From Candidatus Thalassospirochaeta sargassi (GTDB lineage Bacteria; Spirochaetota; Spirochaetia; UBA9216), in contig JAQQAL010000006.1 in the NCBI GenBank assembly GCA_028532855.1, positions 72,757 through 136,756 on the forward strand: DNA of 64,000 bases, in the 5' to 3' direction. The notes beneath the pieces were generated by a model. The model searched no databases. It was not told the origin of the DNA and saw only the letters and a program-made list of their open reading frames with translations. Below, in pieces: positions 233-16,979 of this stretch. Numbering within the stretch: the first letter of the stretch is position 1; every line of letters begins with the position of its first letter. The translations under genes and the position numbers were made by a program.

Positions 233-1381
233 ATGGCTAAGTGGTATCAGGACACGATGTGGTGGATTCTAAAAAATACTAAGGGGAAGAAACTTGTTGA
301 AAGCTGCAATATTGAAGTAGTCTCTCACCAGGAGGAGCCGGAACCGCCGTTTATCCTGATGGGAAACCATGCTCATGCCCAGGATCCCTATATGATAGGC
401 CACTTTATGAACCATACAGTTAATTACATGGCTAATATAGACGGGGTTTCAGATATTCAGCGCCGTCTTTCAAATCTTGTAGGTGCATACGGCAAAAAGA
501 AGGGCGCCTCTGATTTTGCAGCCTTGAAGCAAACAATAAATCTGCTTAAAAACGGCAATGCTATAGGCATTTTCCCCGAAGGTGACCGAAGCTGGGATGG
601 ATCAACGGTTGATTTCATTCCCGGAACCGCATCAATTGCAAAAAGATATAAGGTTCCTATCCGCATAGCAAAAATGACGGGAGCATATCTTACAGAACCC
701 CGATGGGCTGATTACCCCAGGAGAGGCAGAGTACTGATAGATTTTAGAACCATAACCGTGGAAGAAATTGCCTTAATGAGCGCCACCGAACTTGAAAAAA
801 AGATCTGTTCAATGCTAAAACACAACGACATCAAGGATCCGCTTAACAATGAGATCGTGTTTACCGGTGAAAATCTTGCATCCGGGATTCAGAGGATAAT
901 CTGGTTCTGCCCCGAATGCGGCGCACAGGATAGCATTAACGGAAGTGGTGATAAGATCATATGTTCTGTATGCGGTAAAAACTGGCAGCTTGACGGCAAC
1001 CTGCGAATAAGTCCTACAGGCAGGGCCGGCGCAGACCTGAAAGACTGGATTGACATGCAGGCGGATGAGATGAAAAAAATATGTGAATCAGCCGGTGATG
1101 CTGTTTTGACCCGAACAGATGATATTACTCTTTCAGAGGTAATCGACCGGAAGATGACTACCCCCCGAAACGGAAACCTTGTTCTATACAGGGACCGAAT
1201 TGAATTTAGTTATGAAAACTCCGGGATGCTCGTTTTTGATAACATTCAGGTGGAGCACTATATTGACAATTTTAATAAAGCCTTTGAATTTGATTATGGC
1301 AAGAAAAGATACCGGGTGATATTCGATGGTAAAAATGCCTCTAAATGGATTTTTTTCCTGAACTATCTTAAAGCTATATAG
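233..1381 (+). CDS. PlsC-like lysophospholipid/glycerolipid acyltransferase with an embedded CxxC...CxxC zinc ribbon
   Basis: An HX4D motif (NHAHAQD) and an FPEGDRS motif are typical of the PlsC/LPLAT acyltransferase family. The pairs CPECG and CSVCG form a zinc-ribbon-like tetracysteine. Confidence 0.65.
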   Translation: MAKWYQDTMWWILKNTKGKKLVESCNIEVVSHQEEPEPPFILMGNHAHAQDPYMIGHFMNHTVNYMANIDGVSDIQRRLSNLVGAYGKKKGASDFAALKQTINLLKNGNAIGIFPEGDRSWDGSTVDFIPGTASIAKRYKVPIRIAKMTGAYLTEPRWADYPRRGRVLIDFRTITVEEIALMSATELEKKICSMLKHNDIKDPLNNEIVFTGENLASGIQRIIWFCPECGAQDSINGSGDKIICSVCGKNWQLDGNLRISPTGRAGADLKDWIDMQADEMKKICESAGDAVLTRTDDITLSEVIDRKMTTPRNGNLVLYRDRIEFSYENSGMLVFDNIQVEHYIDNFNKAFEFDYGKKRYRVIFDGKNASKWIFFLNYLKAI

Positions 1382-2357
1382 CAGAACCTTCCATATCTCC
1401 AGTGTACTCACTGTTAAGTTCATTCGCATCATCAAGGTGAAGCTCGAGTTTTTCTCCGAAATCTTTCCATTGATACCACTGCTCGGGGCTGTCTTTCAGC
1501 GTGTGATCTAGATTCGCCATGGTCTGAATACCAAGAGGGAGAGCTCCGGCTGAATCTGTATCTACCGTTTGAAGCCTCAGCGTATATCTTTTACTGCTTT
1601 CCCGATGCATCAATGCAGTAGCAACTGCCGCACCGGAGTGTTTTCTCATAATATCCAGGGTCTTGTCTCCTGAAAACGTCTGATTCATGAAATTAATTGG
1701 AATCTTTTTTGATGGTCGCCAGGCTTCAAACTCATCACATTCCGTGATCAGAATCCGTCCGTTTTTAAGAGCATCAACAGCTGCAAAAAAGACATTACCA
1801 TTATCCAGATCGACAAGCTGGAGATCCTTCATCTCCTCTGCCCGCTTTTCAAGCGTCCTTTTCAGTTTCTGGGTCTGAAAACGCAGAATCATTGTTACGG
1901 GATACCCACGGGAAGCGAGAGCCCCCGGAAGCCATTCAACCCCACCGTAATGTGCGGTTACAAGAATAATGCCCCGGTTCTGGGCGAGTAAGTTTCTGAA
2001 ATCTTCTTCACCCTTAACTCTGACCCACGAGACAAAGCGTTTTTTCAAAAGGCTGTAGTTTGAATAAGCAACGAACAGTTTCTCGTGGTAGTGGGTGAAT
2101 ATACCGTAAAAGACATCATTCACAAGCTTATTAAGGCTTGCCGTAGACAAACGGTTTTTATAAATATGCCTGACAGTTTTTTCTATAAGCTTTTTTTCCT
2201 TCTTTTTAAAACTATAGTAAATTTTACCAAGGAAAAGAAGGTAAGACTTCGATGTGTAATAAGGAAGGAATCTAAAGATTGCAACATTGATTCTTGCCTG
2301 TAAAAATTTGCTCAAATTAAGATTAAAACGTTTTTGCAGTTTCATTTCCTTAGACAT
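1374..2357 (-). CDS. LpxL/HtrB-family lipid A biosynthesis (Kdo2-lipid IVA) acyltransferase
   Basis: The length is 327 aa. The N-terminal layout and the TAHYGGVE (HX4E) catalytic motif resemble late lipid A acyltransferases. Its tail overlaps the upstream acyltransferase by 8 nt. Confidence 0.55.
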   Translation of the reverse strand: MSKEMKLQKRFNLNLSKFLQARINVAIFRFLPYYTSKSYLLFLGKIYYSFKKKEKKLIEKTVRHIYKNRLSTASLNKLVNDVFYGIFTHYHEKLFVAYSNYSLLKKRFVSWVRVKGEEDFRNLLAQNRGIILVTAHYGGVEWLPGALASRGYPVTMILRFQTQKLKRTLEKRAEEMKDLQLVDLDNGNVFFAAVDALKNGRILITECDEFEAWRPSKKIPINFMNQTFSGDKTLDIMRKHSGAAVATALMHRESSKRYTLRLQTVDTDSAGALPLGIQTMANLDHTLKDSPEQWYQWKDFGEKLELHLDDANELNSEYTGDMEGSAI

Positions 2358-2530
2358 TAATCCTACCTTTTATACGAAAGTAACAGTTGACATTCATCTG
2401 CGCTATTTTACTATGTATTTTGTTATCGATAAACAAAAAAATACATATAATATTGTAGAGTATATCTACAGGAATTTCTATATTTTATGAATGAAATATT
2501 AAAAATGAGTTAATTATAATCACTTTTAAC

Positions 2531-4051
2531 TCAGCTTGTTTTCTTATTTTCAGGCGGGAAAGGATTGATCTTGTCAAAGCGCTCACCGGATTCTGCCCAG
2601 TACATTCCGCCTGGACGGTAGACCCGTACTTCAAAATGCAGATGCGGTCCGGTTGATTTTCCAGTATTTCCAATCAATCCAAGCTTTTCCCCGGTATTAA
2701 CCCAATCCTGTGGATTTCTTAAAGGGGCTTCATGAAGATGTGCATAAAAGGTTGTCCATGATTCAGCATCAGGATAGAGTGTTTTAACCTCTTTCGTAAG
2801 CGCATGTTCTACTTCTATAGTCCAGCCGTATTGCTCTTCATCATGGGTTATTTCTTTCACCACCCCCTCATAAGAAGCTGTAACATCTCCAGCCGGCATC
2901 CCTTCACGGATAATCTCGCCGGCATATGAAATAAAATCAATATTTCCGACATTGATGATGTCAACCGCATAGTGGGGAGCTACACCTCCTGAGCCGAGAG
3001 GGTCCTGCCGCTTTTCCATGTATCCGTCGGTAATCCGAAAACCGCGTCCGTCGTTTTCCCTTCCTGTAATTGCAACAGGATAAACCATATTGCTAAATGC
3101 GGGAATGTACCGGCTCAAGGGAATAACCCTCTGTTCCTCAGTAGCGAGAAAAATACGTGCCTGATATTCTTCAGAGGGCAGCTGCGACATCTCATAGATA
3201 ATTTCACCGTATGATACCGCCTCCTGAATATTGGAGGCTATAAGCTTGTAAGCCTCTTTTCTGGCCGGCAGATACTTCGTCAGTTCCTCCGAAAGCCTCA
3301 TAACATTAGCATACGCGTTATGCCTGTTAAACTCAAAGTCAGTCTTCGAGCGCTCGAGATTTTCTTTCAGAACCTCCAGATCGCCCTCTGCTTCTACCAT
3401 AAAAGTATCAAGATTCTGCACCTGCCCCTGAATCTGCAGCAGATACTCGTCCATTGTGCTGCCGAGATCATGCTGTATCCGGTTAACCTGCAAAAAATAA
3501 GCTGCAACAAAGATAGCAAGAACTACAACTGCTGCAGTTAATACAGGAACAAAAACTGAGGGATGAAGAACGACTTCATGATAAAGAGCGCTAATAACCC
3601 TCCTGACCGGACCCTTAGGCTTTATAAATCCGGCATAGCTTGCATTGTAATCAACGCTAAGAACTTCTTCATTGAAATAAAGATTGGAATTATTTGTCTT
3701 TTCAAAGACAGTATCAATACCTGCATGAAGTTCGGCTAGTTCCTCCGGCAAATCAGCCAGAATAATCTGTTTGCCGTCCTTTTCAAGACTCAAAACCTGC
3801 CATTCATCATCTTTCTTGAACGTCCAGTTTCTGAATATCCGGTTTATTCCGTCGCTCGATGTCAGAACTTCCTGAATATGCAGATTCCGTTCGTTGACGC
3901 GAGTAACAACAATAAAAAACAGACCGTTTCGCCTTTTTGCTCTGAAATCAATCACGGGAGAAGAGTATGAGCGAGAGCTGCCGAGCCATTCTTGGGCTAC
4001 AATTGCTATGCGCTTGATAATATTACTGGTAAAATTAGATTTGTCTGCCAT
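2531..4051 (-). CDS. M23 family metallopeptidase (murein DD-endopeptidase, EnvC/NlpD-like) with an N-terminal TM segment and coiled coil
   Basis: The C-terminal GNTGKSTGPHLHFEVR is the M23 HxH signature. An HAVDI-like region lies upstream. The N-terminal half is long and coiled-coil-rich. Confidence 0.8.
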   Translation of the reverse strand: MADKSNFTSNIIKRIAIVAQEWLGSSRSYSSPVIDFRAKRRNGLFFIVVTRVNERNLHIQEVLTSSDGINRIFRNWTFKKDDEWQVLSLEKDGKQIILADLPEELAELHAGIDTVFEKTNNSNLYFNEEVLSVDYNASYAGFIKPKGPVRRVISALYHEVVLHPSVFVPVLTAAVVVLAIFVAAYFLQVNRIQHDLGSTMDEYLLQIQGQVQNLDTFMVEAEGDLEVLKENLERSKTDFEFNRHNAYANVMRLSEELTKYLPARKEAYKLIASNIQEAVSYGEIIYEMSQLPSEEYQARIFLATEEQRVIPLSRYIPAFSNMVYPVAITGRENDGRGFRITDGYMEKRQDPLGSGGVAPHYAVDIINVGNIDFISYAGEIIREGMPAGDVTASYEGVVKEITHDEEQYGWTIEVEHALTKEVKTLYPDAESWTTFYAHLHEAPLRNPQDWVNTGEKLGLIGNTGKSTGPHLHFEVRVYRPGGMYWAESGERFDKINPFPPENKKTS

Positions 4052-4707
4052 CTTCTATCTATATTATAATAATCCGTTATAGTGAAAATCCATCACAAGG
4101 CTGGTAAATACTGTGGTGATATAGAAATTAATATAATTTCTTATAATTTTCAAGGTAAAAACCGGCCGCTGAAGACATTTTATCGTACATTAACCGACAA
4201 TGAATACATAAAATGCCGGACAGTAATCGGGATCAAGGGCTTCCTGAGAAGCCGCCACAGTTCAAATATTATTATTAATTTATTCGGAAACAAAACAACC
4301 GGGCTTTATTTTACCCCTGACAATAGAATATTGAGTTCAGCATCAATAGATAAAACAATTAGACTATGAGAACTTGAAAACCGACTTCAACTCAAGGCAA
4401 TTCGCGAGTTTAGCGGCATTGGAAACGATGCAATTACTGTTGCTGATACACTCCGGTTTTATCCCGCCTGAAAAGAATTAATTACTGGAACCATACCTGG
4501 ACGAAGTATGGCATACAGAAAGTATAACTATTTTCTCGGTATCAACTGACGGGCACTTTCTTCGAATCGGATACGCATACACAGACTGGCAAGCCAACGG
4601 CAGAGAAAACGATCAGGCCGACTACTACGCTACAAAGCAGCTTATTAAAAACCAACGGCAATTGGACAGTATTTGATATCTGCAAACCCGAACAAGAAAT
4701 TCATCAG

Positions 4708-4797
4708 AGGCTTGTTTCCTATCGGCCCCAAGCCGGAGGCTTGTTTCCTATCGGCCCTCAAGCCGGAGGCTTGTGTCCTATCGGCCCCAAGCCTCTG
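4708..4797. repeat. Three tandem copies of a ~31-bp unit (gaggcttgtttcctatcggccccaagccg), each with a short palindrome caagcc-gga-ggcttg
   Basis: The direct repeats are visible at 4708-4738, 4739-4770 and 4771-4797. The third copy overlaps the last 6 codons and stop of the Fe-ADH gene. There are no spacers, so this is not CRISPR. Confidence 0.7.
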
Positions 4798-5917
4798 TAT
4801 AAATTGCAAACGCATCTTCCTGGGTAACTTCACGCGGATTATTTACAAGAAGCCTTGTCTGGTCCATCACTGAAACAGACATTGGTTTGATTGCACTTTC
4901 TGGTATATCAATTGCCTTAAGATTACGCGGAAGATTAACATCGACACAGAGCTGCTCAACTTCATTTATACAGTCCTGCCAATCAGCTCCCTTGCGACCT
5001 GTCATTATTTCAGCGATATGTCCGAACCGCTCTTTCATGGCTGATGCGTTAAATTTAATAATAACCGGCAGCATAAGGCTGTTAGCCATACCATGGGGGA
5101 CATGAAACATTCCCCCAAGCGGGTATGCAAAGGCATGAACGGCTGTAACCCCAGCATTCGCAAAGGCGATTCCGGCCATAAGGCTTCCAAGCAGCATGTT
5201 CTCACGGGCCGTTAGGTCAGAACCATTATTGTAGGCAGTACGAATGTTCTGTGAAATTAGCTCAATTGCCTTTACAGCCATTGCATCGCTATAGTCGTTA
5301 GCATTTGCCGATGTGTAGGCTTCAACACAATGGCAGAGTGCATCCATGCCGGTAGGAGCAGTAATATGCGGCGGAAGGCCTACTGTAAGCGAAGGGTCGA
5401 GAAACGCAAACTTTGGCATAATGAACGGTGTACCAAAGCCTTTCTTTGTTTCGTTTTCAAGATCCGATAGAATCGAAAGGTAGGTAACCTCAGATCCAGT
5501 ACCGGCAGTGGTGGGGACAGCAAGAATAGGAAGCCCCGGCTTGGGAAGTACCCCCACCCCAATGTAATCCTTTATACTGCCTTCATTGCCTACAAGTGCG
5601 GCTGCAACCTTAGCGGAATCTATTGATGAGCCTCCACCTAAACCAATAATTGCCTGAGCGCCGCTCAGTCGTGCCTTATCGGCGATGCTGTCAACAAGCT
5701 GCATAGAAGGATCGGGTTTGACCTCGTCAACAAGAAGAACCTCCTTGCCTGCATCTATAAGGACCTTTTCAATCTTATCGTAGATTCCAACCTTAATCAG
5801 TCCTTCGTCGGTAACCACCATCACTTTTTCTGCTCCGAGACTGTCGAGTGCAGCAGGGATTTCCGCTATTGAGTTTTCCCCGAGTTTAACCTGTGGTACA
5901 GGCCATATATTCATCAT
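4778..5917 (-). CDS. Iron-containing alcohol dehydrogenase, probably NAD-dependent 4-hydroxybutyrate dehydrogenase (4hbD/AbfH)
   Basis: The Fe-ADH glycine-rich motif GLGGGSSIDSAKVAA is present with conserved His residues. It sits immediately downstream of abfT/abfD/gabT in the same orientation. Confidence 0.75.
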   Translation of the reverse strand: MMNIWPVPQVKLGENSIAEIPAALDSLGAEKVMVVTDEGLIKVGIYDKIEKVLIDAGKEVLLVDEVKPDPSMQLVDSIADKARLSGAQAIIGLGGGSSIDSAKVAAALVGNEGSIKDYIGVGVLPKPGLPILAVPTTAGTGSEVTYLSILSDLENETKKGFGTPFIMPKFAFLDPSLTVGLPPHITAPTGMDALCHCVEAYTSANANDYSDAMAVKAIELISQNIRTAYNNGSDLTARENMLLGSLMAGIAFANAGVTAVHAFAYPLGGMFHVPHGMANSLMLPVIIKFNASAMKERFGHIAEIMTGRKGADWQDCINEVEQLCVDVNLPRNLKAIDIPESAIKPMSVSVMDQTRLLVNNPREVTQEDAFAIYTEAWGR

Positions 5918-6013
5918 ACCTTTATCTCCTTATAATAATTGTTACAGCACGCAGTCCCGAATAACCGAAACCTCCCACCGTTGTTCTCAATGACTCGTAT
6001 TTGTAGACTTTTT

Positions 6014-7294
6014 TCATAAAGATTTCCTGAGCTCTTCACGGAAATCCGGATGAGCAATATTTATCAATGCTTCAGCTCGTTCACTGTTACTTTTGCCCTT
6101 GAGATGAGCCACACCATATTCTGTTACAATGTAATCTACATCATGGCGCGAGGTGGTCACGCATGCGCCTTCTTTCAACCTTGCTGTGATACGGGATACA
6201 GCCCCCTTCTTTCCTGTCGACGGAAAAGCAATAATTGATTTTCCGCCCTTTGACGACATTGCTGCACGTACAAAATCAACCTGTCCACCGACTGCTGTAA
6301 ACTGTTTTCCGCCTATCATATCCGCGCAGACCTGACCGTAGAGGTCTACCTCAAGCGCCGAGTTAATCGAAATAAGGTTTTCCAGCCTGCCTGCAACAAG
6401 AATGTTGTTCGTATAATCTACCGGCTTCATCATCACTGCCGGGTTATCGTTTGCAAAATCGTACAGGCGTTTTGTTCCCATAAGAAATGTTGCTACAAAC
6501 TTTCCCGGGTTGAGGTTGTTGTACTTATTGGTAACAACCCCCTGTTCATAGAGATCAACTACTCCATCAGAAAACATTTCGGTGTGGATTCCGAGGTCCT
6601 TCTTTTCAGTCAGAAAATGCAGTACAGCATCGGGGATGGCACCTATTCCAAGCTGAAGGGTTGCCCGGTCTGGTATCAGCTCGGCAATGTACTGACCAAT
6701 CTTTCGCTCCACCTCGCCTATCTTCGGCAGGGGAATCTCAATAGGTTCATAATCAGTCTCTACTAGATAATCAACTTCACTGACATGAATGTAGGAGCCA
6801 TAGGTTTTTGGCATTTTAGAATTAACTTCCGCTACTACAACGCGGGCTGTTTCGGCTGCCTGCAGAGTATAGTCAACCGATATTCCATAACTCATAAAAC
6901 CGTGTTCATCCGGAGGAGACACCATTATGAAGGCAACATCCGAATCAATAGAACCGTCACGAAATCTTCCAGGAAGCTCTGAAAAAAAGCAGGGAATAAA
7001 ATCTCCACGGCCTTCATTTATGCAGCCGCGAGTCGCTCCGCCGGCAAAGACAGTGCTGTGCTTAAAACGGCCCTCCCACTCCGCATCACAGTACCAGCAG
7101 TCATGCAGAGGGACCATGTGGAACACCCTGACATTCTTAAGCCTCCCGGCCTGATTCTTCATTTCATTTGTAAGCTCAACAGGCACGCCGGAGCAATGCC
7201 CGAGAACCACCTGATCCCCGGATCTTACGCTTTTTTCAACGGCGCTTTTCAGATCTGTCTTTTTTTGTTTATACAGAGTCCTCCAGTCTTCCAT
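6014..7294 (-). CDS. abfT: 4-hydroxybutyrate CoA-transferase (acetyl-CoA hydrolase/transferase family)
   Basis: The length is 426 aa. The N-terminus (...SGDQVVLGHCSGVP...NVRVFHMV) closely resembles Clostridium aminobutyricum AbfT and Cat2-type CoA-transferases. Confidence 0.75.
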   Translation of the reverse strand: MEDWRTLYKQKKTDLKSAVEKSVRSGDQVVLGHCSGVPVELTNEMKNQAGRLKNVRVFHMVPLHDCWYCDAEWEGRFKHSTVFAGGATRGCINEGRGDFIPCFFSELPGRFRDGSIDSDVAFIMVSPPDEHGFMSYGISVDYTLQAAETARVVVAEVNSKMPKTYGSYIHVSEVDYLVETDYEPIEIPLPKIGEVERKIGQYIAELIPDRATLQLGIGAIPDAVLHFLTEKKDLGIHTEMFSDGVVDLYEQGVVTNKYNNLNPGKFVATFLMGTKRLYDFANDNPAVMMKPVDYTNNILVAGRLENLISINSALEVDLYGQVCADMIGGKQFTAVGGQVDFVRAAMSSKGGKSIIAFPSTGKKGAVSRITARLKEGACVTTSRHDVDYIVTEYGVAHLKGKSNSERAEALINIAHPDFREELRKSL

Positions 7295-7309
7295 CTATAA
7301 CTCCTGTTT

Positions 7310-8773
7310 TCAGCTCTTGATGTTGGCAAGGGCTTTTGCATATTCCTTCTTTCGCTGAACATCAGCCTGGCGGGCAATCATAATTCTCTGAGCCTGCGGA
7401 GAACCTGCGCCGTGCATTGATTCGGTTAAATAACCTACTGCAGCACGTCCCATTGTAAGGTTTTCGATCAAACGAAGAAGCTTCAGTCTGTCTTTGGTAT
7501 CTACACCTTCAGCCCCACCCAAAAACTTCTTAACAAGTTCAGCAGTCTCGGGGTTTTCAAGATCTTTCGCATGCGGTGCTGTAACCATAAGCCCACCGGC
7601 AATATCCTGAAGCAGACGTGCAATTTCATAGGGAAACCGGGTAACATTCTGCTTACAGACATTAGCAAGAAGCAGATCAATCAGGTAGTTTCCTGATTTT
7701 GTTTCCTTACCGAGCCAGCAGCATGCAACGGAGGAAGACCAGATAGTTTCATTAAGATGATTCATCTCTACAATCTTGTCTTTAATATGTGAAGCCCTTG
7801 CCGCACCGTTGTACTCGGCAATAAGCTGTGCGGCGCCAATAGCAACATCACCTACACCAGTCTTACATGCATAGCTTGAGCGGTGGTAACCTGCAAATCT
7901 TTCAACGAGCATTCCGGAGAAGTCCCATTCGCCGTCCATAAAAACCCTTTCTGTAGGTACAAAGACATTATCAAATACCATAAGAGCTTCCTGTCCGCCG
8001 AAGTTGGGGCTTCCTGCATCCATATTATCCCCGTCCGGATCCTCCATCAGCCTTGTGTCACATGACTGGCGACCATAAATATAGGTAATTCCAGGATCAT
8101 CGGATTCAACAATACAGGTTACCGCAAAGTCTTTATCTTCTTCAGTCATTGTTACGGTAGGCATAATCAGAGCATGATGCGAGTTTATACATCCAGTCTG
8201 GTGTGTCTTGGCCCCGCTTATAACAATGCCGTCAGGACGCCTTTCAACAACATGCACATATACATCAGGGTCCGGACACTGGTGAGGACGTTTACTTCGA
8301 TCACCCTTAGGGTCGGTCATGCAGCCGTCCACAACGAGGTCACCCTCTTCAACCTCAAGCATATATTTCTTAAAACGCTCGTGGTAGGATGTCCCATATT
8401 TTTCATCCATTTCATATGTTGTGGAAAATGTAGCATTGAATGCATCCATACCTACACAGCGCTGAAAGCATGTACCGCATTTCTGACCGAGAAGCCTCTG
8501 CATCCCAACCTTTTTATAGAGTTCTTCGGGGCTGCGATGGATGTGACAGAATCTGTTAATCCTGTTTCCCGTTAACGATGAAATCTCCGTAAGGTCGTCC
8601 CTGTAGTCTGATCCTTCTTCAGCAAGCTCATATGTAAGTGCGATAGAATTAATAGAAGCAGCGATAATCGGATGATCATAGGGGTTCTCAAGTTTTTCTC
8701 CCGCCATGTAAACATTCAGCGGACGTCTGTTCCTAAGGCTTTCACGGTATTCCTTACCTGTCATTAATGCCAT
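7310..8773 (-). CDS. abfD: 4-hydroxybutyryl-CoA dehydratase/vinylacetyl-CoA delta-isomerase
   Basis: There is strong resemblance to C. aminobutyricum AbfD, including MQRLLGQKCGTCFQRCVGMDAFNA, GGQEALMVFDNVF and the ESMHGAGSPQAQRIMIARQ tail. The start was moved to Met16 at 8773 because a perfect AAGAGGAG Shine-Dalgarno precedes it; the longest ORF runs to 8818. Confidence 0.8.
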   Translation of the reverse strand: MALMTGKEYRESLRNRRPLNVYMAGEKLENPYDHPIIAASINSIALTYELAEEGSDYRDDLTEISSLTGNRINRFCHIHRSPEELYKKVGMQRLLGQKCGTCFQRCVGMDAFNATFSTTYEMDEKYGTSYHERFKKYMLEVEEGDLVVDGCMTDPKGDRSKRPHQCPDPDVYVHVVERRPDGIVISGAKTHQTGCINSHHALIMPTVTMTEEDKDFAVTCIVESDDPGITYIYGRQSCDTRLMEDPDGDNMDAGSPNFGGQEALMVFDNVFVPTERVFMDGEWDFSGMLVERFAGYHRSSYACKTGVGDVAIGAAQLIAEYNGAARASHIKDKIVEMNHLNETIWSSSVACCWLGKETKSGNYLIDLLLANVCKQNVTRFPYEIARLLQDIAGGLMVTAPHAKDLENPETAELVKKFLGGAEGVDTKDRLKLLRLIENLTMGRAAVGYLTESMHGAGSPQAQRIMIARQADVQRKKEYAKALANIKS

Positions 8774-8807
8774 TTTTTTCTCCTCTTTTATCCAGGGGTA
8801 TATTCCC

Positions 8808-9080
8808 TTAAAAATCAATTTTCACAAGACTGATGTCATGCTCATCCAGATCATAAAAATAAGTCAGATGTCTGTGGATCAGATTGATAACTCCCGCCAC
8901 CTTCCGCAGCCCGTCAAATTCCGCAGGGCCGCCGTACCTGACAGCACTCTGAACAGCCGGGGTGTCGAGCATAATTCGCGTAAGCCCCAGGTCTGTCGTG
9001 GCTTTATTATCAAAGGTAACTACCTCAGCACTTCGATGCGGAAAAAGTTCGACAAGACCTTCCCATGCAAGCCTCTGCAC
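8808..9080 (-). CDS. Small hypothetical protein (90 aa) between gabT and abfD
   Basis: This is an ORF only, in the same orientation as the operon. No motif was recognised, and it may be non-coding spacer. Confidence 0.25.
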   Translation of the reverse strand: MQRLAWEGLVELFPHRSAEVVTFDNKATTDLGLTRIMLDTPAVQSAVRYGGPAEFDGLRKVAGVINLIHRHLTYFYDLDEHDISLVKIDF

Positions 9081-9128
9081 TGCTTTGCTTCACCAGCATA
9101 CTTTGTCATACATACAAAACCTGACAGT

Positions 9129-10391
9129 TTAACCCAGCACTTTTTTCAATGCATTCTCAAATCGTGTAAGACCATCATTCATCTCATCTTCACTTATTAC
9201 CAGAGGCGGTATCCATCTGATTATATTTCCATAGGTACCGCAGCCCAGCATAAGCATATTCTCCTCCCTGGCGGCGGCGATAACAGCCTTGGATGTTGCA
9301 GAATCGGGCTGACCGTCTTTGATAAATTCAGTTGCGACCATACATCCGCGCCCGCGAACATCGCCGATAACAGGGTATTCTGCCTGAAGCTGTTTCAGCC
9401 TGTTCATAAGCTGTCCACCGCGTGCAGCAGCGTTTTCATCCAGCTTCTCTTCTTTCATAACACGAACTGTTGCTGCAGCCGCAGCACATCCCATAGTATT
9501 TCCGCTGTAAGTTCCACCGTGAGTACCGGTACGCCATTTTTTCTGCAGCTGTTTTTTATACGCTATTCCTGAAATCGGCATTCCTGATCCCAGCCCCTTT
9601 GCCATCGTCATAATATCGGGCTTGATATCCTCATGCTGAACAGCAAAGAATTTTCCTGTTCTGCAGAAACCCGACTGTACCTCATCGGCAATCATCATGA
9701 TTCCGTATTCATCACATATCTCACGCACAGCCTGCAGAAAACCGGCCGGGGGAACCACATATCCGCCCTCCCCCAGCACAGGCTCAATGATTATTGCTGC
9801 AGTCTCATCGGGCTGACTCTGCCCCGAAAGAGTACGTTTGAGTTCCTTAATTGCAAAAGCCTTTGTTGTATCATCATCCCACCCATAATAAAACGAGTAG
9901 GGATAGGGCGAGACAAAAATACCGCCAGGAAGCGGCTGATAGCCTTCACGATAAACAGTTTTACTGGTGGTCATGGCCATTGTAAGATGAGAACGGCCGT
10001 GGAATGAACCATTGAAGACGATTACATTAGGCCGGCCTGTTGCATGCTTGGCCAGCTTAACGGCTGCCTCAACAGCTTCAGCACCGCTGCTGGCGAAGAA
10101 AAAGGTATCAAGGCCGTCTGGCATGACGGATTTGAGTTCGTTTACAAGATCGACTATGGGTTCATGGTATACGATATTAAACTGACCGAAAATCAGTTTT
10201 TCAGACTGTTTCTTTATTGCCTCGACAACCTTCGGGTGACAATGCCCCGTATTGGTAACACCGATTCCGCTTGTGAAATCGAGATACTTATCTCCGCTTT
10301 TTCCATAAAACCAACAGCCTTCGGCATGATCAACCATTATATCGGTTGCATGAGTCCATACCGAAGATATTCCGTTCATATCGCTGTTCAT
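9129..10391 (-). CDS. gabT: Class III PLP-dependent aminotransferase, probably 4-aminobutyrate aminotransferase
   Basis: The length is 420 aa. The class III aminotransferase layout is present (GxGxxxTGHCHP..., ...DEVQSGFCRTGKFFA..., and a PLP-lysine region TMAKGLGSG). It is the first gene of the GABA-fermentation operon. Confidence 0.75.
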   Translation of the reverse strand: MNSDMNGISSVWTHATDIMVDHAEGCWFYGKSGDKYLDFTSGIGVTNTGHCHPKVVEAIKKQSEKLIFGQFNIVYHEPIVDLVNELKSVMPDGLDTFFFASSGAEAVEAAVKLAKHATGRPNVIVFNGSFHGRSHLTMAMTTSKTVYREGYQPLPGGIFVSPYPYSFYYGWDDDTTKAFAIKELKRTLSGQSQPDETAAIIIEPVLGEGGYVVPPAGFLQAVREICDEYGIMMIADEVQSGFCRTGKFFAVQHEDIKPDIMTMAKGLGSGMPISGIAYKKQLQKKWRTGTHGGTYSGNTMGCAAAAATVRVMKEEKLDENAAARGGQLMNRLKQLQAEYPVIGDVRGRGCMVATEFIKDGQPDSATSKAVIAAAREENMLMLGCGTYGNIIRWIPPLVISEDEMNDGLTRFENALKKVLG

Positions 10392-10465
10392 TAATCTCTC
10401 CTGTTTAAATTCTACAAAGAGATTATAACGAAAGCCGGAAACACCGTTATGTTTTTTCTATATCA

Positions 10466-12922
10466 TTATTCTGATAAACAAAGAGCAGCCGCCTTATTTA
10501 CAGCCTCAACTCCATCTGCTGCATATTCAGTGTTAATCGATTCGGCCCATTCTCGGGTTACAACTGCCCCGCCGACCATTATTTTAGCCTTCAAGCCTTT
10601 GGATTCTGCAAGTTCAACAATCTCGGGCATTCTAATCATGGTGGTTGTCATAAGAGCCGAAAGACCTATAACGTCGGCATTGTTTGCAATTGCAGCGTCA
10701 ACAATGTCTTCCGCTTTAACATCCTTTCCAAGATCTACAACCTCAAAACCATAGTTGCGCAGCATCAGTACAACGATATTCTTACCAATATCATGTATAT
10801 CACCCTGAACGGTTGCAAAGACCAGGGTTCCTTTCTTCGTATCATCGCCGGAAGCCTTAAGTACTGGTTCAAGAACAGTAAAACCCTTTTCCATGGTCTC
10901 CGCACTTGCTATCAGCTGCGGCAGAAAGTATTTTTTCTGATCATATAGATCGCCTACCTTCATTATTGCTGGAATCATCTCATTCTGAAGTAATTTTGAG
11001 GGCAGATACCCGGCCTCTAGGGCACGTTGGCAGAGATCTTCTATATCTTCGCGTCTTCCTTCAATAATTGCGCCTGCGATAAGCTCTTCAAGACTCATTT
11101 CAGGATTAGTCGGGGCTGGGTCTGCCGTTTTTCCGGCATCAGCATCCTTCTTTTCATTAAACTTAGCAATATAGGCTGCAGAATCCATGTCCCTCCCGGT
11201 AAGCACATCTGAGGCGGATTTTGCATTCATCAGAAGTTCGTGCGAGGGGTTGGCGATAGCCCAGGACAAGCCTGCTCCGGCAGCCATTGAGAAAAAGGAT
11301 GAGTTTATCCATCCGCGTTCAGGCAGTCCGAAACTGACGTTTGACAAACCGAGAACCGTCCCGAAGCCGTTCGCAGCAGCCCAGCGTACAGTTTTAAGGG
11401 TCTCGGATGCAGCTTCCTGATTGCTTGAAACCGTCATCACAAGCCCGTCCACAATAAGCTCCTCAGGACCGTACCCGTATTCGGCCGCGGCCGCGGCTAT
11501 TTCCTTTATAAGTTCAATCCGGCGTTCAGCCTTGTCGGGCAGCTCGTTATCGGCAAGCGGTAGAACTACCAGCATTGCACCGTACCGTGCAGCAACCGGA
11601 AGCAGTCTGGCCAGCTTTTCTTTCTCAGCCGATATGGAGTTGATAAGCGCCCTCCCGGGGTAGTATCGGACTGCCGCTTCAACAGCCTCAGGATCGGAAG
11701 AATCTATAACCAGCGGTAGTGCCGCCGCCGGCACAACAGCCGAGATAATATCAAGCAGGGTCTGCTTCTCATCGACCCCGGGCATGCCTGCATTTACATC
11801 GAGCAGGTCTGCGCCTGCGGCAAGCTGATCGCGAGCGAGCTTTTTGACGTAACCCATATTGCCGGCTTTAAGCTCTTCCTGAAGACGGCGTTTACCGGTG
11901 GGGTTGATCCGCTCGCCTATTATTCGTATCGGGCTGTCGGGCAGCGTCTGAAGGAGCTCGGTTGCTGAACTCAGTAAGGATCCCGCAGGCCTGCTGCGTT
12001 TCACCGGCTTGAGAGTTTTCATTTTACCGGATAGTTCTGTAATGTGCTCAGGTCCGGTGCCGCAGCAGCCGCCCATGATGTTTACACCAGCCTCAACAAA
12101 AGATTCCGCGAAAGACCCGAACTCTTCAGCCTGCATCGGAAAAACAGTTTTGCCTTCACGGATTTCCGGCATTCCGGCATTCGGTTTAGCAACAATGGGG
12201 ATATCGACAACAGCACTAATGCGCTTTATAAGCTTCAGCATCTCAGCAGGTCCGGTAGAGCAGTTCATTCCGACTGCATCAGCGCCGAGACTCTGGAGTG
12301 TAACAGCCATGGCCTCGGGTGTTGTACCGTTCAGACTTCGGCCTGACTGGTCAAATGTCATTGAAACAATGGTGAACTTATCTGTAAGCTCCTTGACCGC
12401 AAGCAGAGCGGCCCGGCATTCCTGTATATCAATCTGGGTTTCAATTACAAAAAGGTCTACACCAGCTTCCAGCAGCCCGCTAACCTGTCGTTTAAAACCG
12501 GAAACAGCGTCGTCAAAGTCCAGATCTCCGAAAGGCATTATAAATCTGCCGGAAGGGCCTATATCACCCGCAATCAAGGGACGCCTTTTCCCCTCCGAGG
12601 CAAGCTTGTCTGCAGTCTCTACCGCATTGGCGGCTATAAGACGGTTTACTTCCTCAGTCCGCTCCGCAGCACCGAACTCATCCAGTTTCCACGGGGTTCC
12701 TCCGAAGGTGCATGTATATAGGATATCTGAACCTGATTCAGCATAGGCTCGATAGATATCAGCCGAAACTCCTGGGTTTTCAACAGACCACAGTTCTGGA
12801 CTAACCCCTGCGGGCAACCCCCGCTTCTGCATCTCAGTTCCTGTAGCACCGTCAAGCAGGACAGGACGTTCTGCAATCAGTGCTTTTATTTTATCATTCA
12901 TATTATTCATTATTATCTCCAT
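10466..12922 (-). CDS. metH: Cobalamin-dependent methionine synthase, short form (Hcy-binding, pterin-binding and B12-binding domains; no reactivation domain)
   Basis: An N-terminal homocysteine S-methyltransferase region (LLDGATGT...GGCCGT) is followed by a pterin-binding domain. The B12-binding motif DIHDIGKNIV (DxHxxG) and the C-terminal cap are present. The length is 818 aa, and the true start may be Met8 at 12901. Confidence 0.8.
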   Translation of the reverse strand: MEIIMNNMNDKIKALIAERPVLLDGATGTEMQKRGLPAGVSPELWSVENPGVSADIYRAYAESGSDILYTCTFGGTPWKLDEFGAAERTEEVNRLIAANAVETADKLASEGKRRPLIAGDIGPSGRFIMPFGDLDFDDAVSGFKRQVSGLLEAGVDLFVIETQIDIQECRAALLAVKELTDKFTIVSMTFDQSGRSLNGTTPEAMAVTLQSLGADAVGMNCSTGPAEMLKLIKRISAVVDIPIVAKPNAGMPEIREGKTVFPMQAEEFGSFAESFVEAGVNIMGGCCGTGPEHITELSGKMKTLKPVKRSRPAGSLLSSATELLQTLPDSPIRIIGERINPTGKRRLQEELKAGNMGYVKKLARDQLAAGADLLDVNAGMPGVDEKQTLLDIISAVVPAAALPLVIDSSDPEAVEAAVRYYPGRALINSISAEKEKLARLLPVAARYGAMLVVLPLADNELPDKAERRIELIKEIAAAAAEYGYGPEELIVDGLVMTVSSNQEAASETLKTVRWAAANGFGTVLGLSNVSFGLPERGWINSSFFSMAAGAGLSWAIANPSHELLMNAKSASDVLTGRDMDSAAYIAKFNEKKDADAGKTADPAPTNPEMSLEELIAGAIIEGRREDIEDLCQRALEAGYLPSKLLQNEMIPAIMKVGDLYDQKKYFLPQLIASAETMEKGFTVLEPVLKASGDDTKKGTLVFATVQGDIHDIGKNIVVLMLRNYGFEVVDLGKDVKAEDIVDAAIANNADVIGLSALMTTTMIRMPEIVELAESKGLKAKIMVGGAVVTREWAESINTEYAADGVEAVNKAAALCLSE

Positions 12923-13595
12923 TCGTTATTCCATAAATTGCAGTTACCGATTTTTCGGGCAGCAGCATCGATGATTCAGTTATACTTACACCAAGTCGTT
13001 CCATATCAAGCAAGGAATGAATATCATTCTGAAACCTGATATCAAAATCTCCGTAGCCGGCGGAAAATCTCCTGGTGCTTAATACGCGGCCTTCCCTTAC
13101 AAGCTCTTTTGAGTACAGGGATGCAATCCAGTCGAAACCGTCATCGACAATCTCTGATGCGGCGGCATCTATAACCACAGCGGATGTCATTTTTTTCTCA
13201 AGCTGAAGCTCTTTAATCTCATCTGTAACCCTGCTTCCCCCGGTAATTCCCATTATCAGAATCTCCCCCGACCCGCTTAGAAAATCATACAGCTTGTCAC
13301 TCAAAAATCTAACGTCTGTATCAACTACCTCAACAACTGCAGGAGCTTCAGCATCACTTTCTTTCAGTGATAACGCAGTCCTAAGGCATACGCCCCTGAG
13401 CTCAATCAGATCCGCAGCCTGCGCGATCAGACCGTCAACCTCAGCCAGCATCTCCCCGGAGATCTCGATACTGCGGCTGTTATAACCCAGCCTCTTGAGA
13501 ATTTTATGTCTTGGAACCCTGACCGGGATATAGTTAAAACCGCGAATCGGAAACATTCCTACAATATACCAGTAAAAAGAATGCGGCTCAATCAC
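12903..13595 (-). CDS. Stand-alone methionine synthase reactivation (AdoMet-binding) domain protein
   Basis: The length is 230 aa and it lies immediately upstream of the short metH, overlapping it. RRFSAGYGD resembles the RxSxGYPAC motif of the MetH activation domain. This arrangement is known from Thermotoga and clostridial split MetH. Confidence 0.5.
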   Translation of the reverse strand: MIEPHSFYWYIVGMFPIRGFNYIPVRVPRHKILKRLGYNSRSIEISGEMLAEVDGLIAQAADLIELRGVCLRTALSLKESDAEAPAVVEVVDTDVRFLSDKLYDFLSGSGEILIMGITGGSRVTDEIKELQLEKKMTSAVVIDAAASEIVDDGFDWIASLYSKELVREGRVLSTRRFSAGYGDFDIRFQNDIHSLLDMERLGVSITESSMLLPEKSVTAIYGITNGDNNE

Positions 13596-13720: not shown

Positions 13721-15067
13721 ATGACGAGCTTTATTACTCTAATGCTGATATACACAGCAGCAGGAACCGGAATAGCAGTTTACGCCGGTCGCAGAAGAGG
13801 AAAAGATCAGGCTTCATATTTTATCGGCGGGCGCGGCATGAGCTGGCTGGTAAGCGCATTAACCTATGCTGCAACAACCTATTCATCCTTCATGATGGTA
13901 GGCCTTGTCGGGCTGTCGTATTCCACGGGTATCGGTGCAATGATATTTGAGATGACCTACCTCATTGCAACTATAATACTCCTGTCAATATACGGAAAAA
14001 AGATTTGGCAGATGAGCTGTGAAAAAGAGCTGGTTTCACCAATGGAACTTTTCTCTTTACAATTCGGAAAAGCGACAGGAACAGCCGGAGCCCTGATTTC
14101 AGCTGCTGCACTGATTCCATATACAGCAGCCCAGGTTATCGGACTTTCAATCATATTCCAAAACTTCGGCATAAGCTACGCAACGGGAGTAGCCATTGCG
14201 GCTGTATTGATTTGTGTCTGGTCGCTCATAGGCGGCCTTCGCGGGGTAGCCCTTACTGATGCAGTTCAGGGTTTGTTTATGATTGCCGTGGCAGTTGTTG
14301 CAGTTATCTGGGCCGGAAATAAATTCGGGGGCATTGAAACATCAACCTTCCCCAACAAGGTATGGACCCCCGTGTTCTTTATAAACATTACCCTGCCCTG
14401 GGCCTTCTTTGCACTTACAAATCCTCAGGTTGTTCAGCGGCTATTTATAATAAAGGACAAGGCCGGATTGAAAAAGATGATCATCCTGTTTGCCGCAGTC
14501 GGTACAGCTTATACAGTAATTACCTGCCTGCTTGGATTCAGCGCTAAATATGGAACAATGAATGGCGGCCTCAGTGAAATTACCGGCCGTGATAATGTTA
14601 TCCTCGGCCTGCTGGAAACTATGGGCAGAGGATTGGGCCTTGCAACCGCTTTAAGCATAGTATTCGCAAGCATCTCAACATCCAACTCAATTATCCTGAC
14701 CCTTTCATCAATGTTCACCAGGGATGTGGTACGCAAAACCGATAAAATCTGGTACGGCCGGGTCTTTATTGTTATAATCACTGCTTTCGTCGCGGTTTTT
14801 GCCGCAAGACGAACATCCTACATAGTTGAACTCTCTGTATCGACTTCACGTATCCTGATGTGCTTCCTGCCGCTGTTTTTCGACCTCTTCCATTTCAAAA
14901 AGGGAGGCAGAATTACCGGACCGCTGACAATTATCGGGGGAGCTGCGTCAGCAATCCTGTTCGGCCGTATTGGACTCCAGCTTAGCTCAGTCTGGACCCT
15001 TGCAGCAGCATTCGGTTTTTATTTTACAGGGGTGATTTTGGACAGTCGAAAGCTTAGTCGAAACTGA
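13721..15067 (+). CDS. Sodium:solute symporter family (SSF) transporter
   Basis: The length is 448 aa with about 12-13 predicted TM segments and an SSF-like glycine-rich N-terminus (YFIGGRGMSWLVSAL). Confidence 0.65.
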   Translation: MTSFITLMLIYTAAGTGIAVYAGRRRGKDQASYFIGGRGMSWLVSALTYAATTYSSFMMVGLVGLSYSTGIGAMIFEMTYLIATIILLSIYGKKIWQMSCEKELVSPMELFSLQFGKATGTAGALISAAALIPYTAAQVIGLSIIFQNFGISYATGVAIAAVLICVWSLIGGLRGVALTDAVQGLFMIAVAVVAVIWAGNKFGGIETSTFPNKVWTPVFFINITLPWAFFALTNPQVVQRLFIIKDKAGLKKMIILFAAVGTAYTVITCLLGFSAKYGTMNGGLSEITGRDNVILGLLETMGRGLGLATALSIVFASISTSNSIILTLSSMFTRDVVRKTDKIWYGRVFIVIITAFVAVFAARRTSYIVELSVSTSRILMCFLPLFFDLFHFKKGGRITGPLTIIGGAASAILFGRIGLQLSSVWTLAAAFGFYFTGVILDSRKLSRN

Positions 15068-16979
15068 TAATCTCACCGGGAGATTTGAGCTCATAACCGC
15101 CTAGTTTTTCAAGCTCGGCTGCAAATTCCGCCGACTGCAGGCAGGAAATGAAGGCCTGCAGAGACGGCACGTCAAGCATGTCTTTTCTGACGACAAAATC
15201 ATATTCTTCAGTTCCAACTGGAATAAAATCAAGCCCGTTTACCGAGGCCGCACTGTATACGCCTAGACCGGTATCGGCAGTTCCTGATTTAACTGCGGAG
15301 GCAACCGCCATATGGGTAGTCATCTCGCGAGTGTATCCGTTGATTGAATCAGGTGATATTCCCTTCCCACCTAGCATGTAATCAAGCAGAACCCTGGTTC
15401 CGGCACCACGCTGACGGTTGATATAGACAATTCCCTTTCCCTTGTCACACGGTAAATCCTCAACTGAAGTAATGTTTTTCGGGTTGCCGGGTTTTACAAT
15501 AAAGCCCTGGGTCCGGCCCACACCCTTTATCAGCGCAAAATCGGAAGCCTGGAAATATCGGCCGAAGAGATACTCATTATACTTTCCGTCCTCAGGGTTC
15601 AGCAGATGAACCGGAGCTATGTGGCATTCTCCCTTGCGAATAGCCATTACACCACCCATACTTCCCTGGTGTGTTGACGACAGTCCTGTATGACTTCCGG
15701 CCCTATGCATCAGTTCAGTTATTACATCGAGGAGCAGATCATGACTGCCGATACTGACTAGTCTGTTGTCAATTTCAGCCGAGGACCGTGTCAGCCTGAA
15801 CTCAACCTCTGCGCCGGCCTCCCAACCTTCACACTCCTGAGGGATTTCCAGGATACCGTCAGCCTGGACAAGACTCATTGTTATCCCTGCCCCGCGGTTC
15901 AGAGGGCTTATAACCATCCGACCTCCGACACTGCCGCATTTCACACGGACAAACTCACGGTGTTCGAGCGATGACGGTATTCTGCGAGTCAAAAAACCAG
16001 TCAGGAATTCCTCATCAGCTGCACCTATCCCCTGCATCAGTTCTATCAGAGGTTTAACCAACCTGTCAAAAATGACATAACCTGACACCGGGTAGCCGGG
16101 CAATCCTATAAGAGGCTTGTTCCCCGCCCGCCCGAAGATGGCGGGTTTACCGGGTTTGACTGCAACCCCGTGAAAGAGGAGCTCGCCAAAATGCCTGATA
16201 GTATCGGCGGAATAATCCTCAGTGCCTGCTGAAGAACCGGCGATGATTATAACCGCATCAGCCTGCTCTAGCGCTTTAGCAAATGCTTTCTTAATAAGTT
16301 CGGGATCATCTATTACAGGTTTCATCCGTAGGGGTTCAGCCCCGGCGTCCCGAACCATTGCCGCAAACATCCTTGAATTTGAATCAATTATCCCGCCATC
16401 GGTCATTTCTGACGGGTCTTCAATAATCTCTGTACCTGTGGGTATTATGGCAACAACAGGCCTTCTAAAGACCTCAATCTCAGTGATGCCGCCGGCCGTC
16501 ATTGCACCTATATCTACCGCCCTTATCCGCTGAAATGACGGGATTATCAGCTCGCCTGCGGCTATATCCTCACCTACATGGCGGACATGCTGCCATATTC
16601 TGGCCGGAGCTTTTATAACCACCCGTTCATCATCCGCTTCAAGCAGATCTTCCACCATTATTACGGCATTCCACGGTTCTGTTACAGGGTCTCCTGTATC
16701 AATCCATTTGAAACCGCTCCCCGCAGCAAGCTCAAGATGAGTCCTTTCATCTGCTGCCTCGGTGTCTGCTGAAATTACGGCAATCCCGTCCATCGCCGCA
16801 GCATTATGATTAGGCGATGAAAGAACAGCCTTTACCGATGCAGCTGAAACCCGCCCCAGAGCATCATAAACAGAGACGGTTTCAACACCTGTAAGTTCGG
16901 CTGAACGGAATTCAACCGCCAGCCGGGCCCCGGCCTCTTCGAATCTCAAATTATCCAGATAAACATTTCTTTTCTTCAT
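15054..16979 (-). CDS. MoeA-family molybdopterin molybdotransferase fused to a C-terminal periplasmic-binding-protein-like (PBP) domain
   Basis: A MoeA core spans the first ~400 aa (GELLFHGVAVKPGKP, LPGYPVSG). The C-terminal ~230 aa look like a type-2 PBP fold (GSHDLL...GTADTGLG). Confidence 0.65.
   Translation of the reverse strand: MKKRNVYLDNLRFEEAGARLAVEFRSAELTGVETVSVYDALGRVSAASVKAVLSSPNHNAAAMDGIAVISADTEAADERTHLELAAGSGFKWIDTGDPVTEPWNAVIMVEDLLEADDERVVIKAPARIWQHVRHVGEDIAAGELIIPSFQRIRAVDIGAMTAGGITEIEVFRRPVVAIIPTGTEIIEDPSEMTDGGIIDSNSRMFAAMVRDAGAEPLRMKPVIDDPELIKKAFAKALEQADAVIIIAGSSAGTEDYSADTIRHFGELLFHGVAVKPGKPAIFGRAGNKPLIGLPGYPVSGYVIFDRLVKPLIELMQGIGAADEEFLTGFLTRRIPSSLEHREFVRVKCGSVGGRMVISPLNRGAGITMSLVQADGILEIPQECEGWEAGAEVEFRLTRSSAEIDNRLVSIGSHDLLLDVITELMHRAGSHTGLSSTHQGSMGGVMAIRKGECHIAPVHLLNPEDGKYNEYLFGRYFQASDFALIKGVGRTQGFIVKPGNPKNITSVEDLPCDKGKGIVYINRQRGAGTRVLLDYMLGGKGISPDSINGYTREMTTHMAVASAVKSGTADTGLGVYSAASVNGLDFIPVGTEEYDFVVRKDMLDVPSLQAFISCLQSAEFAAELEKLGGYELKSPGEIISFD

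Follow-up and report, generated by a model that had tools for sequence, protein, structure and literature searches.

The 64-kb window analysed here, a stretch of 64,000 nucleotides from the Spirochaetales metagenome-assembled genome (MAG) Candidatus Thalassospirochaeta sargassi, carries at 4778-10391 four co-oriented open reading frames (ORFs) on the minus strand. Their positions and Pfam families bear out the four-gene unit described in a first-pass annotation of the same DNA, the families being Aminotran_3 (421 bits), HpaB_N and HpaB (317 and 236 bits), AcetylCoA_hydro and AcetylCoA_hyd_C, and Fe-ADH and ADH_Fe_C. The first gene (9129..10391, minus strand) encodes a class-III (omega) aminotransferase of 420 residues, a putative 4-aminobutyrate (GABA):2-oxoglutarate aminotransferase, and is followed on the same strand by genes for a predicted 4-hydroxybutyryl-coenzyme A (CoA) dehydratase/vinylacetyl-CoA delta-isomerase (abfD, 7310..8773, 487 residues), a predicted 4-hydroxybutyrate CoA-transferase (abfT, 6014..7294, 426 residues) and, last, a Fe-type NAD-dependent alcohol dehydrogenase (ADH, 4778..5917, 379 residues) that is a putative 4-hydroxybutyrate dehydrogenase, i.e. 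a succinic semialdehyde reductase. Successive genes are separated by 355, 15 and 96 bp, the 355 bp between the aminotransferase gene and abfD holding the remnant of a regulator gene and the 96 bp between abfT and the ADH gene a deletion scar. The mechanical ORF list over-extends abfD to a TTG at 8818 (7310-8818); its start is the ATG at 8773 (MALMTGKEY), which follows GAGGAG by six bases and agrees with the start in the closest relative. The gene set leading from GABA to crotonyl-CoA (aminotransferase, 4-hydroxybutyrate dehydrogenase, AbfT and AbfD) is therefore predicted to lie in one unit, and we think it probable that these four genes form the upper half of a GABA fermentation route in a spirochaete MAG.

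Products of the four genes

The AbfD assignment is strong. The protein scores 643 bits against Clostridium aminobutyricum AbfD (1U8V), with 60.8% identity over 480 aligned residues, and 615 bits against the Nitrosopumilus enzyme (6VJR), but at most 120 bits against HpaB-type and chlorophenol monooxygenases. HpaB equivalog models stay far under their cut-offs (TIGR02309, 143 bits against 480). The [4Fe-4S] ligands of the clostridial enzyme are C99, C103, H292 and C299, and T190, E257, Y296 and E455 are reported to be important in dehydration (1U8V numbering; bioRxiv 10.1101/2020.02.05.935528). All eight are kept in the window protein, the ligands as C102, C106, H297 and C303 and the other four as T193, E262, Y301 and E451. 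The very strong similarity reported at first pass is thus confirmed, as is the presence of the Fe-S ligands (four of four) that it had proposed to check, and because of these scores and conserved residues the grouping with HpaB monooxygenases that it had named as a possible refutation does not occur. This strongly argues that the window protein is a 4-hydroxybutyryl-CoA dehydratase and not an HpaB monooxygenase.

Spirochaetia MAGs are the source of every AbfD relative at 88-96% identity, and three window proteins are identical to MDC7225416, MDC7225417 and MDC7225420 of a Spirochaetales MAG listed in UniRef as Ca. Thalassospirochaeta sargassi, which together indicate a spirochaete host and agree with the earlier view of a non-clostridial, diderm organism. 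As given in the reference list of PMC12236494, this taxon was proposed from seaweed metagenomes.

AbfT is likewise strongly supported. It has the two-domain acetyl-CoA hydrolase/transferase fold (PF02550 and PF13336), and its matches to three chains deposited as 4-hydroxybutyrate CoA-transferase (3EH7, 466 bits; 3GK7, 452; 3D3U, 423) stand far above those to other family members (at most 84 bits). Its E239 aligns with E238 of 3GK7, the C. aminobutyricum AbfT, in which this residue is the catalytic glutamate, and a GGQVDF motif begins at residue 336. The best matches and the aligned glutamate uphold the first-pass assignment, and point firmly to a 4-hydroxybutyrate CoA-transferase.

Judged on similarity, the ADH is the least secure of the four assignments. 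It has the metal ligands D192, H196, H261 and H275, Asp37 and a GGGS motif. Among solved structures it comes closest to methanol dehydrogenase (258 bits), 1,3-propanediol oxidoreductase (233) and FucO (211). Cvir-Hbd2 of C. viride (30SM) ranks 23rd, with 153 bits over residues 69-371. The protein falls under every NCBIfam cut-off, including those for lactaldehyde reductase (291 bits against 523) and for the Cupriavidus-type 4-hydroxybutyrate dehydrogenase NF058672 (263 against 500), and its Asp37 (in VVTDEG) is the usual NAD-type residue, where the clostridial cd14860 subfamily has Asn (N34 of Cvir-Hbd2). Because similarity is low, the cut-offs are missed and its homologues are generically named, the ADH is not an orthologue of the clostridial AbfH/4HbD enzymes (cd14860; C. 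kluyveri 4HbD and Cvir-Hbd1/2/3).

The active site nevertheless carries a signature. The motif reads H261-AFA-Y265...H275-GMA-N279, with Tyr265 standing in for the His of FucO, DhaT and the methanol dehydrogenases (Mdh). In the 4-hydroxybutyrate-specific Cvir-Hbd2 this position is Tyr256, and the Y256A substitution lowers kcat/Km about 50-fold, while the 5-hydroxyvalerate dehydrogenase of C. viride keeps the usual His (PMC13495136, 2026). All 115 members of the ADH clade with a readable motif have the Tyr, down to 51% identity. MAGs labelled Spirochaetales, Deltaproteobacteria and Planctomycetes, along with unbinned metagenome contigs, contain homologues that share the sequence HAFAYPLGG and that the databases name only 'iron-containing alcohol dehydrogenase'.

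Gene context points the same way. In three look-ups made from the ADH side, on unrelated contigs picked only for their length, clade members adjoin abfD or abfT each time: L083 has an aldehyde dehydrogenase (Aldedh), abfD, an acyl-CoA dehydrogenase (ACAD) and the ADH; L085 has GntR, abfD, abfT, crt, ADH, hbd and thl; and the unrelated metagenome scaffold L081 (8001-17137) has the ADH, an AbfT-like transferase, agmatine deiminase, a CN-hydrolase, a pyridoxal phosphate (PLP) decarboxylase and, further on, a class-III aminotransferase, a gene order suggesting that polyamine breakdown is connected to the 4-hydroxybutyrate route. From the AbfD side, the same ADH type is found beside abfD-abfT in MAGs labelled Gammaproteobacteria, Gastranaerophilales, Deltaproteobacteria and Desulfomonilia.

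From this context and the active-site signature we infer that the ADH is a putative 4-hydroxybutyrate dehydrogenase. The first-pass placing of an Fe-type ADH at this step thus holds as regards the Fe-ADH domains, the context and Tyr265, but the enzyme lies outside the clostridial 4-hydroxybutyrate dehydrogenase subfamily. Nor is it likely to be the generic lactaldehyde or 1,3-propanediol reductase that had been put forward as the reading that would undo the assignment: it is no equivalog of these, scoring well under the lactaldehyde reductase cut-off, and its clade is repeatedly tied to abfD or abfT. The chances are about even that it represents a third, uncharacterised lineage of NAD-dependent 4-hydroxybutyrate dehydrogenases, apart from the cd14860 and Cupriavidus Gbd types, in which the Tyr-for-His exchange was gained independently and whose members turn up wherever abfD or abfT is present.

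The aminotransferase, 100% identical to MDC7225420.1, has the 4-aminobutyrate aminotransferases PuuE and GabT as its best solved relatives (344-304 bits). Aligned to PuuE it shows FHGR133, E203/E208, D236-E-V-Q239, the PLP lysine K265 and R392, although the same set of motifs is also a feature of other subgroup-II aminotransferases. The description 'GabT-like' is therefore right as to class-III family and nearest solved relatives, but the protein stays under the GabT equivalog cut-offs, and PRK08117, the model on which it scores best, has a generic name only. Its clade is best described as omega-amine aminotransferases. Relatives at 61-64% identity recur in one type of cluster (L087, L088 and L089, at about 900-9300 in each), which also contains an aldehyde:ferredoxin oxidoreductase, a saccharopine-dehydrogenase-like gene and another class-III aminotransferase, with an amino-acid permease in L088 and L089 and aldehyde dehydrogenases in L087; this cluster may be an undescribed module of omega-amine or diamine catabolism.

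Remnants of a longer spirochaete operon

In related spirochaetes the operon is longer, running aminotransferase, GntR/FCD regulator, abfD, abfT, crotonase (crt), thiolase (thl), 3-hydroxybutyryl-CoA dehydrogenase (hbd) and ADH. All three additional enzyme genes lie between abfT and the ADH gene in L002 and L003; L004 and L005 have crotonase and Hbd and no thiolase match, the L006 contig ends after crotonase, and those of L001 and L010, in which the regulator is present, end before the downstream genes. The regulator is found in each of the six related loci that cover its region, full length in L001, L002, L003, L005 and L010 and as two tblastn pieces in L006, whose assembly breaks inside abfD and abfT as well. 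The intact proteins of L002, L003 and L005 are 219 residues long, with GntR and FCD domains.

In the window only fragments of these genes are left. The regulator pseudogene (8808..9089, minus strand; identified by tblastn with the intact homologues) retains, in a single frame and immediately preceded by a stop codon, residues 47-111 and 189-219, and has lost the 46 N-terminal and 77 internal residues. The former make up most of the GntR DNA-binding domain (about residues 8-69 in intact proteins), and the remnant has no Pfam match. The 90-residue ORF at 8808-9080 within it was considered as a separate small gene, comparable to the NifU-like gene within the Porphyromonas cluster, and rejected, being a fragment of the GntR/FCD regulator. 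Between abfT and the ADH gene, a 31-codon chimeric ORF (5922..6017, minus strand) marks the second deletion: the 5' half of the scar is the start of the thiolase gene (window MKKVYKYESLRTTVGGFG, L002/L003 MKEVYIVDALRTAVGNFG), and the 3' half comprises the last hbd codons and the ribosome-binding site of the ADH gene. An alternative identification of this spacer as a crotonase 5' remnant was discarded, as the alignment shows the thiolase 5' end.

The reduced structure is not an assembly artefact, since the Logan contig L091 (run SRR22388478), an independent assembly of 4,686 bp, is 100% identical to window positions 5213-9898, with the same 90- and 31-residue ORFs, and since no crt, thl or hbd homologue occurs anywhere in the 64 kb. 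The window is the only related spirochaete locus with a truncated regulator and missing downstream genes. It shares with the related Spirochaetia MAG loci (L002 and L003, partly L001, L004, L005, L006 and L010) the four orthologues at 80-96% amino-acid identity, their order, and the flanking metH, sodium:solute symporter family (SSF) transporter and M23 peptidase genes, but where those loci have an intact 219-residue regulator and crt-(thl)-hbd it has only remnants of the regulator and of thl and hbd. By this comparison the window locus is a lineage-specific deletion derivative of the eight-gene spirochaete operon. The operon had been called 'complete' at first pass, which does not hold: the locus stops at crotonyl-CoA.

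The L002 locus, on the complete spirochaete chromosome OY776510.1, has an IS110-family transposase gene between abfD and abfT (11917-13029), and in this group the locus is evidently prone to rearrangement.

Substrate, direction and maintenance of the route

The four enzyme families make up a coherent route, the one first proposed, from GABA via succinic semialdehyde and 4-hydroxybutyrate to crotonyl-CoA. The aminotransferase would move the amino group of GABA to a 2-oxo acid, yielding succinic semialdehyde, which the Fe-ADH would reduce with NADH to 4-hydroxybutyrate, a step predicted from gene context and the active-site signature. AbfT would convert 4-hydroxybutyrate to its CoA thioester and AbfD, as a radical dehydratase containing flavin adenine dinucleotide (FAD) and a [4Fe-4S] cluster, would convert 4-hydroxybutyryl-CoA to crotonyl-CoA, both steps being strongly supported by similarity. 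In relatives the eight-gene operon would carry GABA through to acetyl-CoA. With its in-operon regulator gone, the window unit is probably expressed constitutively or under some other control.

The genes needed to use crotonyl-CoA lie elsewhere. The window contains no bcd, etf or glutamate dehydrogenase gene, and none for crt, hbd or thl. With the L002 Hbd as query, a 67%-identical Hbd (MDC7225297.1) was found in the same Candidatus taxon on another contig, and a protein identical to it is encoded on a Logan contig of the same run together with a TetR regulator, an acyl-CoA dehydrogenase (bcd), EtfB, EtfA and crotonase. This bcd-etfB-etfA-hbd-crt cluster is the classical butyryl-CoA-forming module and presumably handles the crotonyl-CoA, in which case the genes for reducing it to butyryl-CoA and for oxidising it towards acetyl-CoA would stand apart from the GABA genes. 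With this cluster elsewhere in the MAG, the shortened GABA locus could still supply a fermentation and would not need crt-thl-hbd genes of its own; the regulator and crt-thl-hbd were probably lost because this cluster made them redundant.

A number of points weigh against a GABA fermentation route. The aminotransferase lies under all NCBIfam equivalog cut-offs (TIGR00700, 406 bits against 507; PRK08117, its best, 518 against 574), its 61-64%-identical relatives have as neighbours not abfD but genes for aldehyde:ferredoxin oxidoreductase, aldehyde dehydrogenase, a saccharopine-dehydrogenase-like protein and a permease, and its donor could be another omega-amine. The best solved relatives of the ADH are methanol, propanediol and lactaldehyde enzymes, no close relative being characterised, and all 120 of the homologues listed bear generic names only. 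The placing of the bcd-etf-hbd-crt contig in this organism depends on MAG binning, and no thiolase or glutamate dehydrogenase gene has been located, the 64-kb window having neither. Synonymous sites are saturated against every relative, the closest included, and with the regulator and three genes lost the locus could be on its way out.

Of the alternative readings, the one that survives best, though we hold it to be unlikely, is a unit for general 4-hydroxybutyrate or succinic semialdehyde metabolism in which the aminotransferase acts on putrescine, beta-alanine or 5-aminovalerate, or is assimilatory, and GABA is not a growth substrate. It is favoured by the missed GabT equivalog cut-offs, by the other omega-amine and aldehyde clusters in which the 61-64% relatives occur, and by clusters such as L085 and L083, in which the ADH clade accompanies abfD/abfT without an aminotransferase. 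Yet the aminotransferase gene leads the unit in five of the five spirochaete loci that cover it (L002, L003, L005, L006 and the window), and its best solved relatives are GABA aminotransferases. An unrelated class-III aminotransferase (37-40% identity) is linked to abfD-abfT-ADH in six Deltaproteobacteria/Desulfomonilia/Syntrophaceae MAG loci (L027, L036, L037, L050, L056 and L077), which have the same four gene types in another order. Moreover AbfD takes a C4 substrate, so an aminotransferase feeding this route must make succinic semialdehyde, i.e. deaminate GABA. From this pathway logic and the constant linkage we infer that GABA is the donor.

Less likely still is that the locus is decaying, its four genes unused since the loss of the regulator and crt-thl-hbd and intact only because the deletions are recent. 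The window is indeed alone among the related spirochaete loci in these losses, and the regulator remnant has no excess of private substitutions in a relative-rate count (4 of 93, against 0-6 in relatives), which would fit a recent event, although for the same reason the count does not date the deletion. However, none of the four ORFs is truncated, each catalytic residue that was checked is intact, the ribosome-binding sites are kept, and the thiolase remnant has diverged (11 of 18 residues identical at positions where L002 and L003 agree) while AbfD is 96% identical to its closest relative. The redundant hbd-crt with bcd-etf elsewhere in the MAG would also make the deletion tolerable. The ratio of non-synonymous to synonymous substitution (dN/dS) against relatives is 0.016-0.049 in the five gene pairs with estimable dS, but as dS is saturated these figures reflect the whole history of the genes and not constraint since the deletions.

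A biosynthetic or redox-sink role, with the route running backwards so that crotonyl-CoA is turned into GABA via 4-hydroxybutyryl-CoA, 4-hydroxybutyrate and succinic semialdehyde, seems very improbable: all four reaction types are reversible in principle, but no characterised organism is known to make GABA in this way, and in relatives the genes are linked to crt-thl-hbd and to an amino-acid-type symporter, in keeping with catabolism. Least tenable of all is a pairing of an HpaB-type flavin monooxygenase with a generic lactaldehyde/1,3-propanediol reductase, which is suggested by the Pfam domain names and the best solved ADH relatives and is refuted for AbfD by its scores against 1U8V, HpaB and TIGR02309 and by Fe-S ligands that monooxygenases do not have, and opposed for the ADH by its score under the lactaldehyde reductase cut-off and by Tyr265 in place of His.

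Flanking features and relation to known systems

The region upstream of the aminotransferase gene (10392..10465, minus strand), read by eye, probably supplies the unit with its promoter and ribosome-binding site: TATAAT stands about 35 nt before the ATG, and AGGAGA would be the ribosome-binding site. A perfect inverted repeat, ATAACG-N14-CGTTAT (within 10392-10440), overlaps the TATAAT (-10) box. Inspection by eye of L002, L003 and L005 showed no equivalent upstream of the aminotransferase gene, which speaks against a conserved GntR operator. A terminator-like hairpin lies past the metH stop at 10505-10487. Promoter and terminator scans gave no more sites than shuffled sequence, and no convincing terminator inside the unit.

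At the other end, Tandem Repeats Finder (TRF) reports 3.0 copies of a 29-bp unit, GAGGCTTGTTTCCTATCGGCCCCAAGCCG (plus strand), with 94% matches at 4707..4793, starting inside the last five ADH codons (EAWGR*). The array folds as one long nested hairpin (RNA fold, -49 kcal/mol, z = -2.8) that may serve as a terminator or stabiliser; it occurs nowhere else in the window and is absent 3' of the ADH gene in L002, L003 and L005. The spacer between the ADH and M23 peptidase genes (4052-4777) is 726 bp long, against about 180-280 bp in L003 and L005; the ORFs in it are all short and unconvincing, and it may be what is left of a lost gene.

Directly upstream of the unit is a split methionine synthase, with homocysteine, pterin and B12 domains in an 818-residue protein (10466-12922) and a weak match to the methionine synthase activation domain in one of 230 residues (12903-13595). 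These genes are absent from this position in L005 and L006, where the SSF transporter gene abuts that of the aminotransferase. The transporter (Pfam SSF; 13721..15067, plus strand) has all its NCBIfam scores under cut-off. In L005 and L006 its orthologue is a divergent neighbour of the aminotransferase gene, and in L002 the orthologue is close by, a weak link by which the transporter is a possible substrate importer. Elsewhere in the window are two MoeA-type genes (15054-18205), one fused to a periplasmic-binding-protein-like domain; a 776-residue family-B DNA polymerase with exonuclease and polymerase domains (47767-50097); and a molybdenum/tungsten cofactor riboswitch (Rfam RF01055; 56103-56224, minus strand; 38.5 bits against a gathering score of 36), 3' of which lies a 302-residue ORF (55210-56118) that has no Pfam match.

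Compared with C. aminobutyricum (AbfD 1U8V; AbfT 3GK7/3QDQ), the window has the same reaction order from GABA to crotonyl-CoA, a 60.8%-identical AbfD with the same [4Fe-4S] ligands and catalytic residues, and an AbfT matching at 452 bits with the same glutamate. It differs in its diderm spirochaete host, in an ADH of another Fe-ADH subfamily, and in having the genes for crotonyl-CoA dismutation outside the locus. The label 'C. aminobutyricum type' given at first pass is accordingly an overstatement, with the ADH scoring 153 bits against Cvir-Hbd2 and 258 against methanol dehydrogenase.

C. viride has clusters with 4-aminobutyrate transaminase, Fe-ADH (Cvir-Hbd1/2/3, PDB 30SM) and 4-hydroxybutyryl-CoA dehydratase, one of which also includes CoA-transferase, thiolase and permease genes (PMC13495136). 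Three or four gene types are thus clustered in both, and both ADHs have the His3Asp metal site, the Tyr (Y256 there, Y265 in the window) and the Asn (N270 and N279), but ADH similarity is low (153 bits, residues 69-371) and the window has Asp37 for the Asn34 of the clostridial subfamily.

According to Vital et al. (2014, PMC3994512), Firmicutes, Fusobacteria, Spirochaetaceae and Bacteroidetes are the only groups in which the 4-aminobutyrate and glutarate pathways were found, and on that listing the GABA pathway was already catalogued outside Firmicutes. The diderm host is therefore less notable than was first suggested, although the same paper credits the glutarate pathway to Treponemaceae, which leaves the GABA share of its spirochaete statement ambiguous. 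The pathway as described there (e.g. Porphyromonas, Fusobacteria) agrees with the window in that an AbfH-type step, 4Hbt/AbfT and AbfD feed crotonyl-CoA to Bcd-Etf, but in the window an aminotransferase takes the place of a CoA-acylating succinate-semialdehyde dehydrogenase as the entry, and Bcd-Etf is encoded elsewhere.

The pathway from GABA to crotonyl-CoA is thus already known; the window adds another instance, and nothing is changed in knowledge of the pathway itself. Three things set it apart from the textbook case: the Fe-ADH is not orthologous, upper and lower pathway are divided between two loci, and the regulator and three genes have been lost in this lineage. The last provides a small worked example of operon reduction, in which an in-operon regulator and three beta-oxidation-type genes have gone. 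The most useful by-product is the well-populated Fe-ADH clade with its diagnostic HAFAYPLGG motif, a good candidate for annotation as 4-hydroxybutyrate dehydrogenase. For the seaweed-associated spirochaete MAG, four generically annotated genes receive a specific predicted function, and the ability to ferment GABA is predicted for the organism and, more plainly, for those relatives that have the eight-gene operon.

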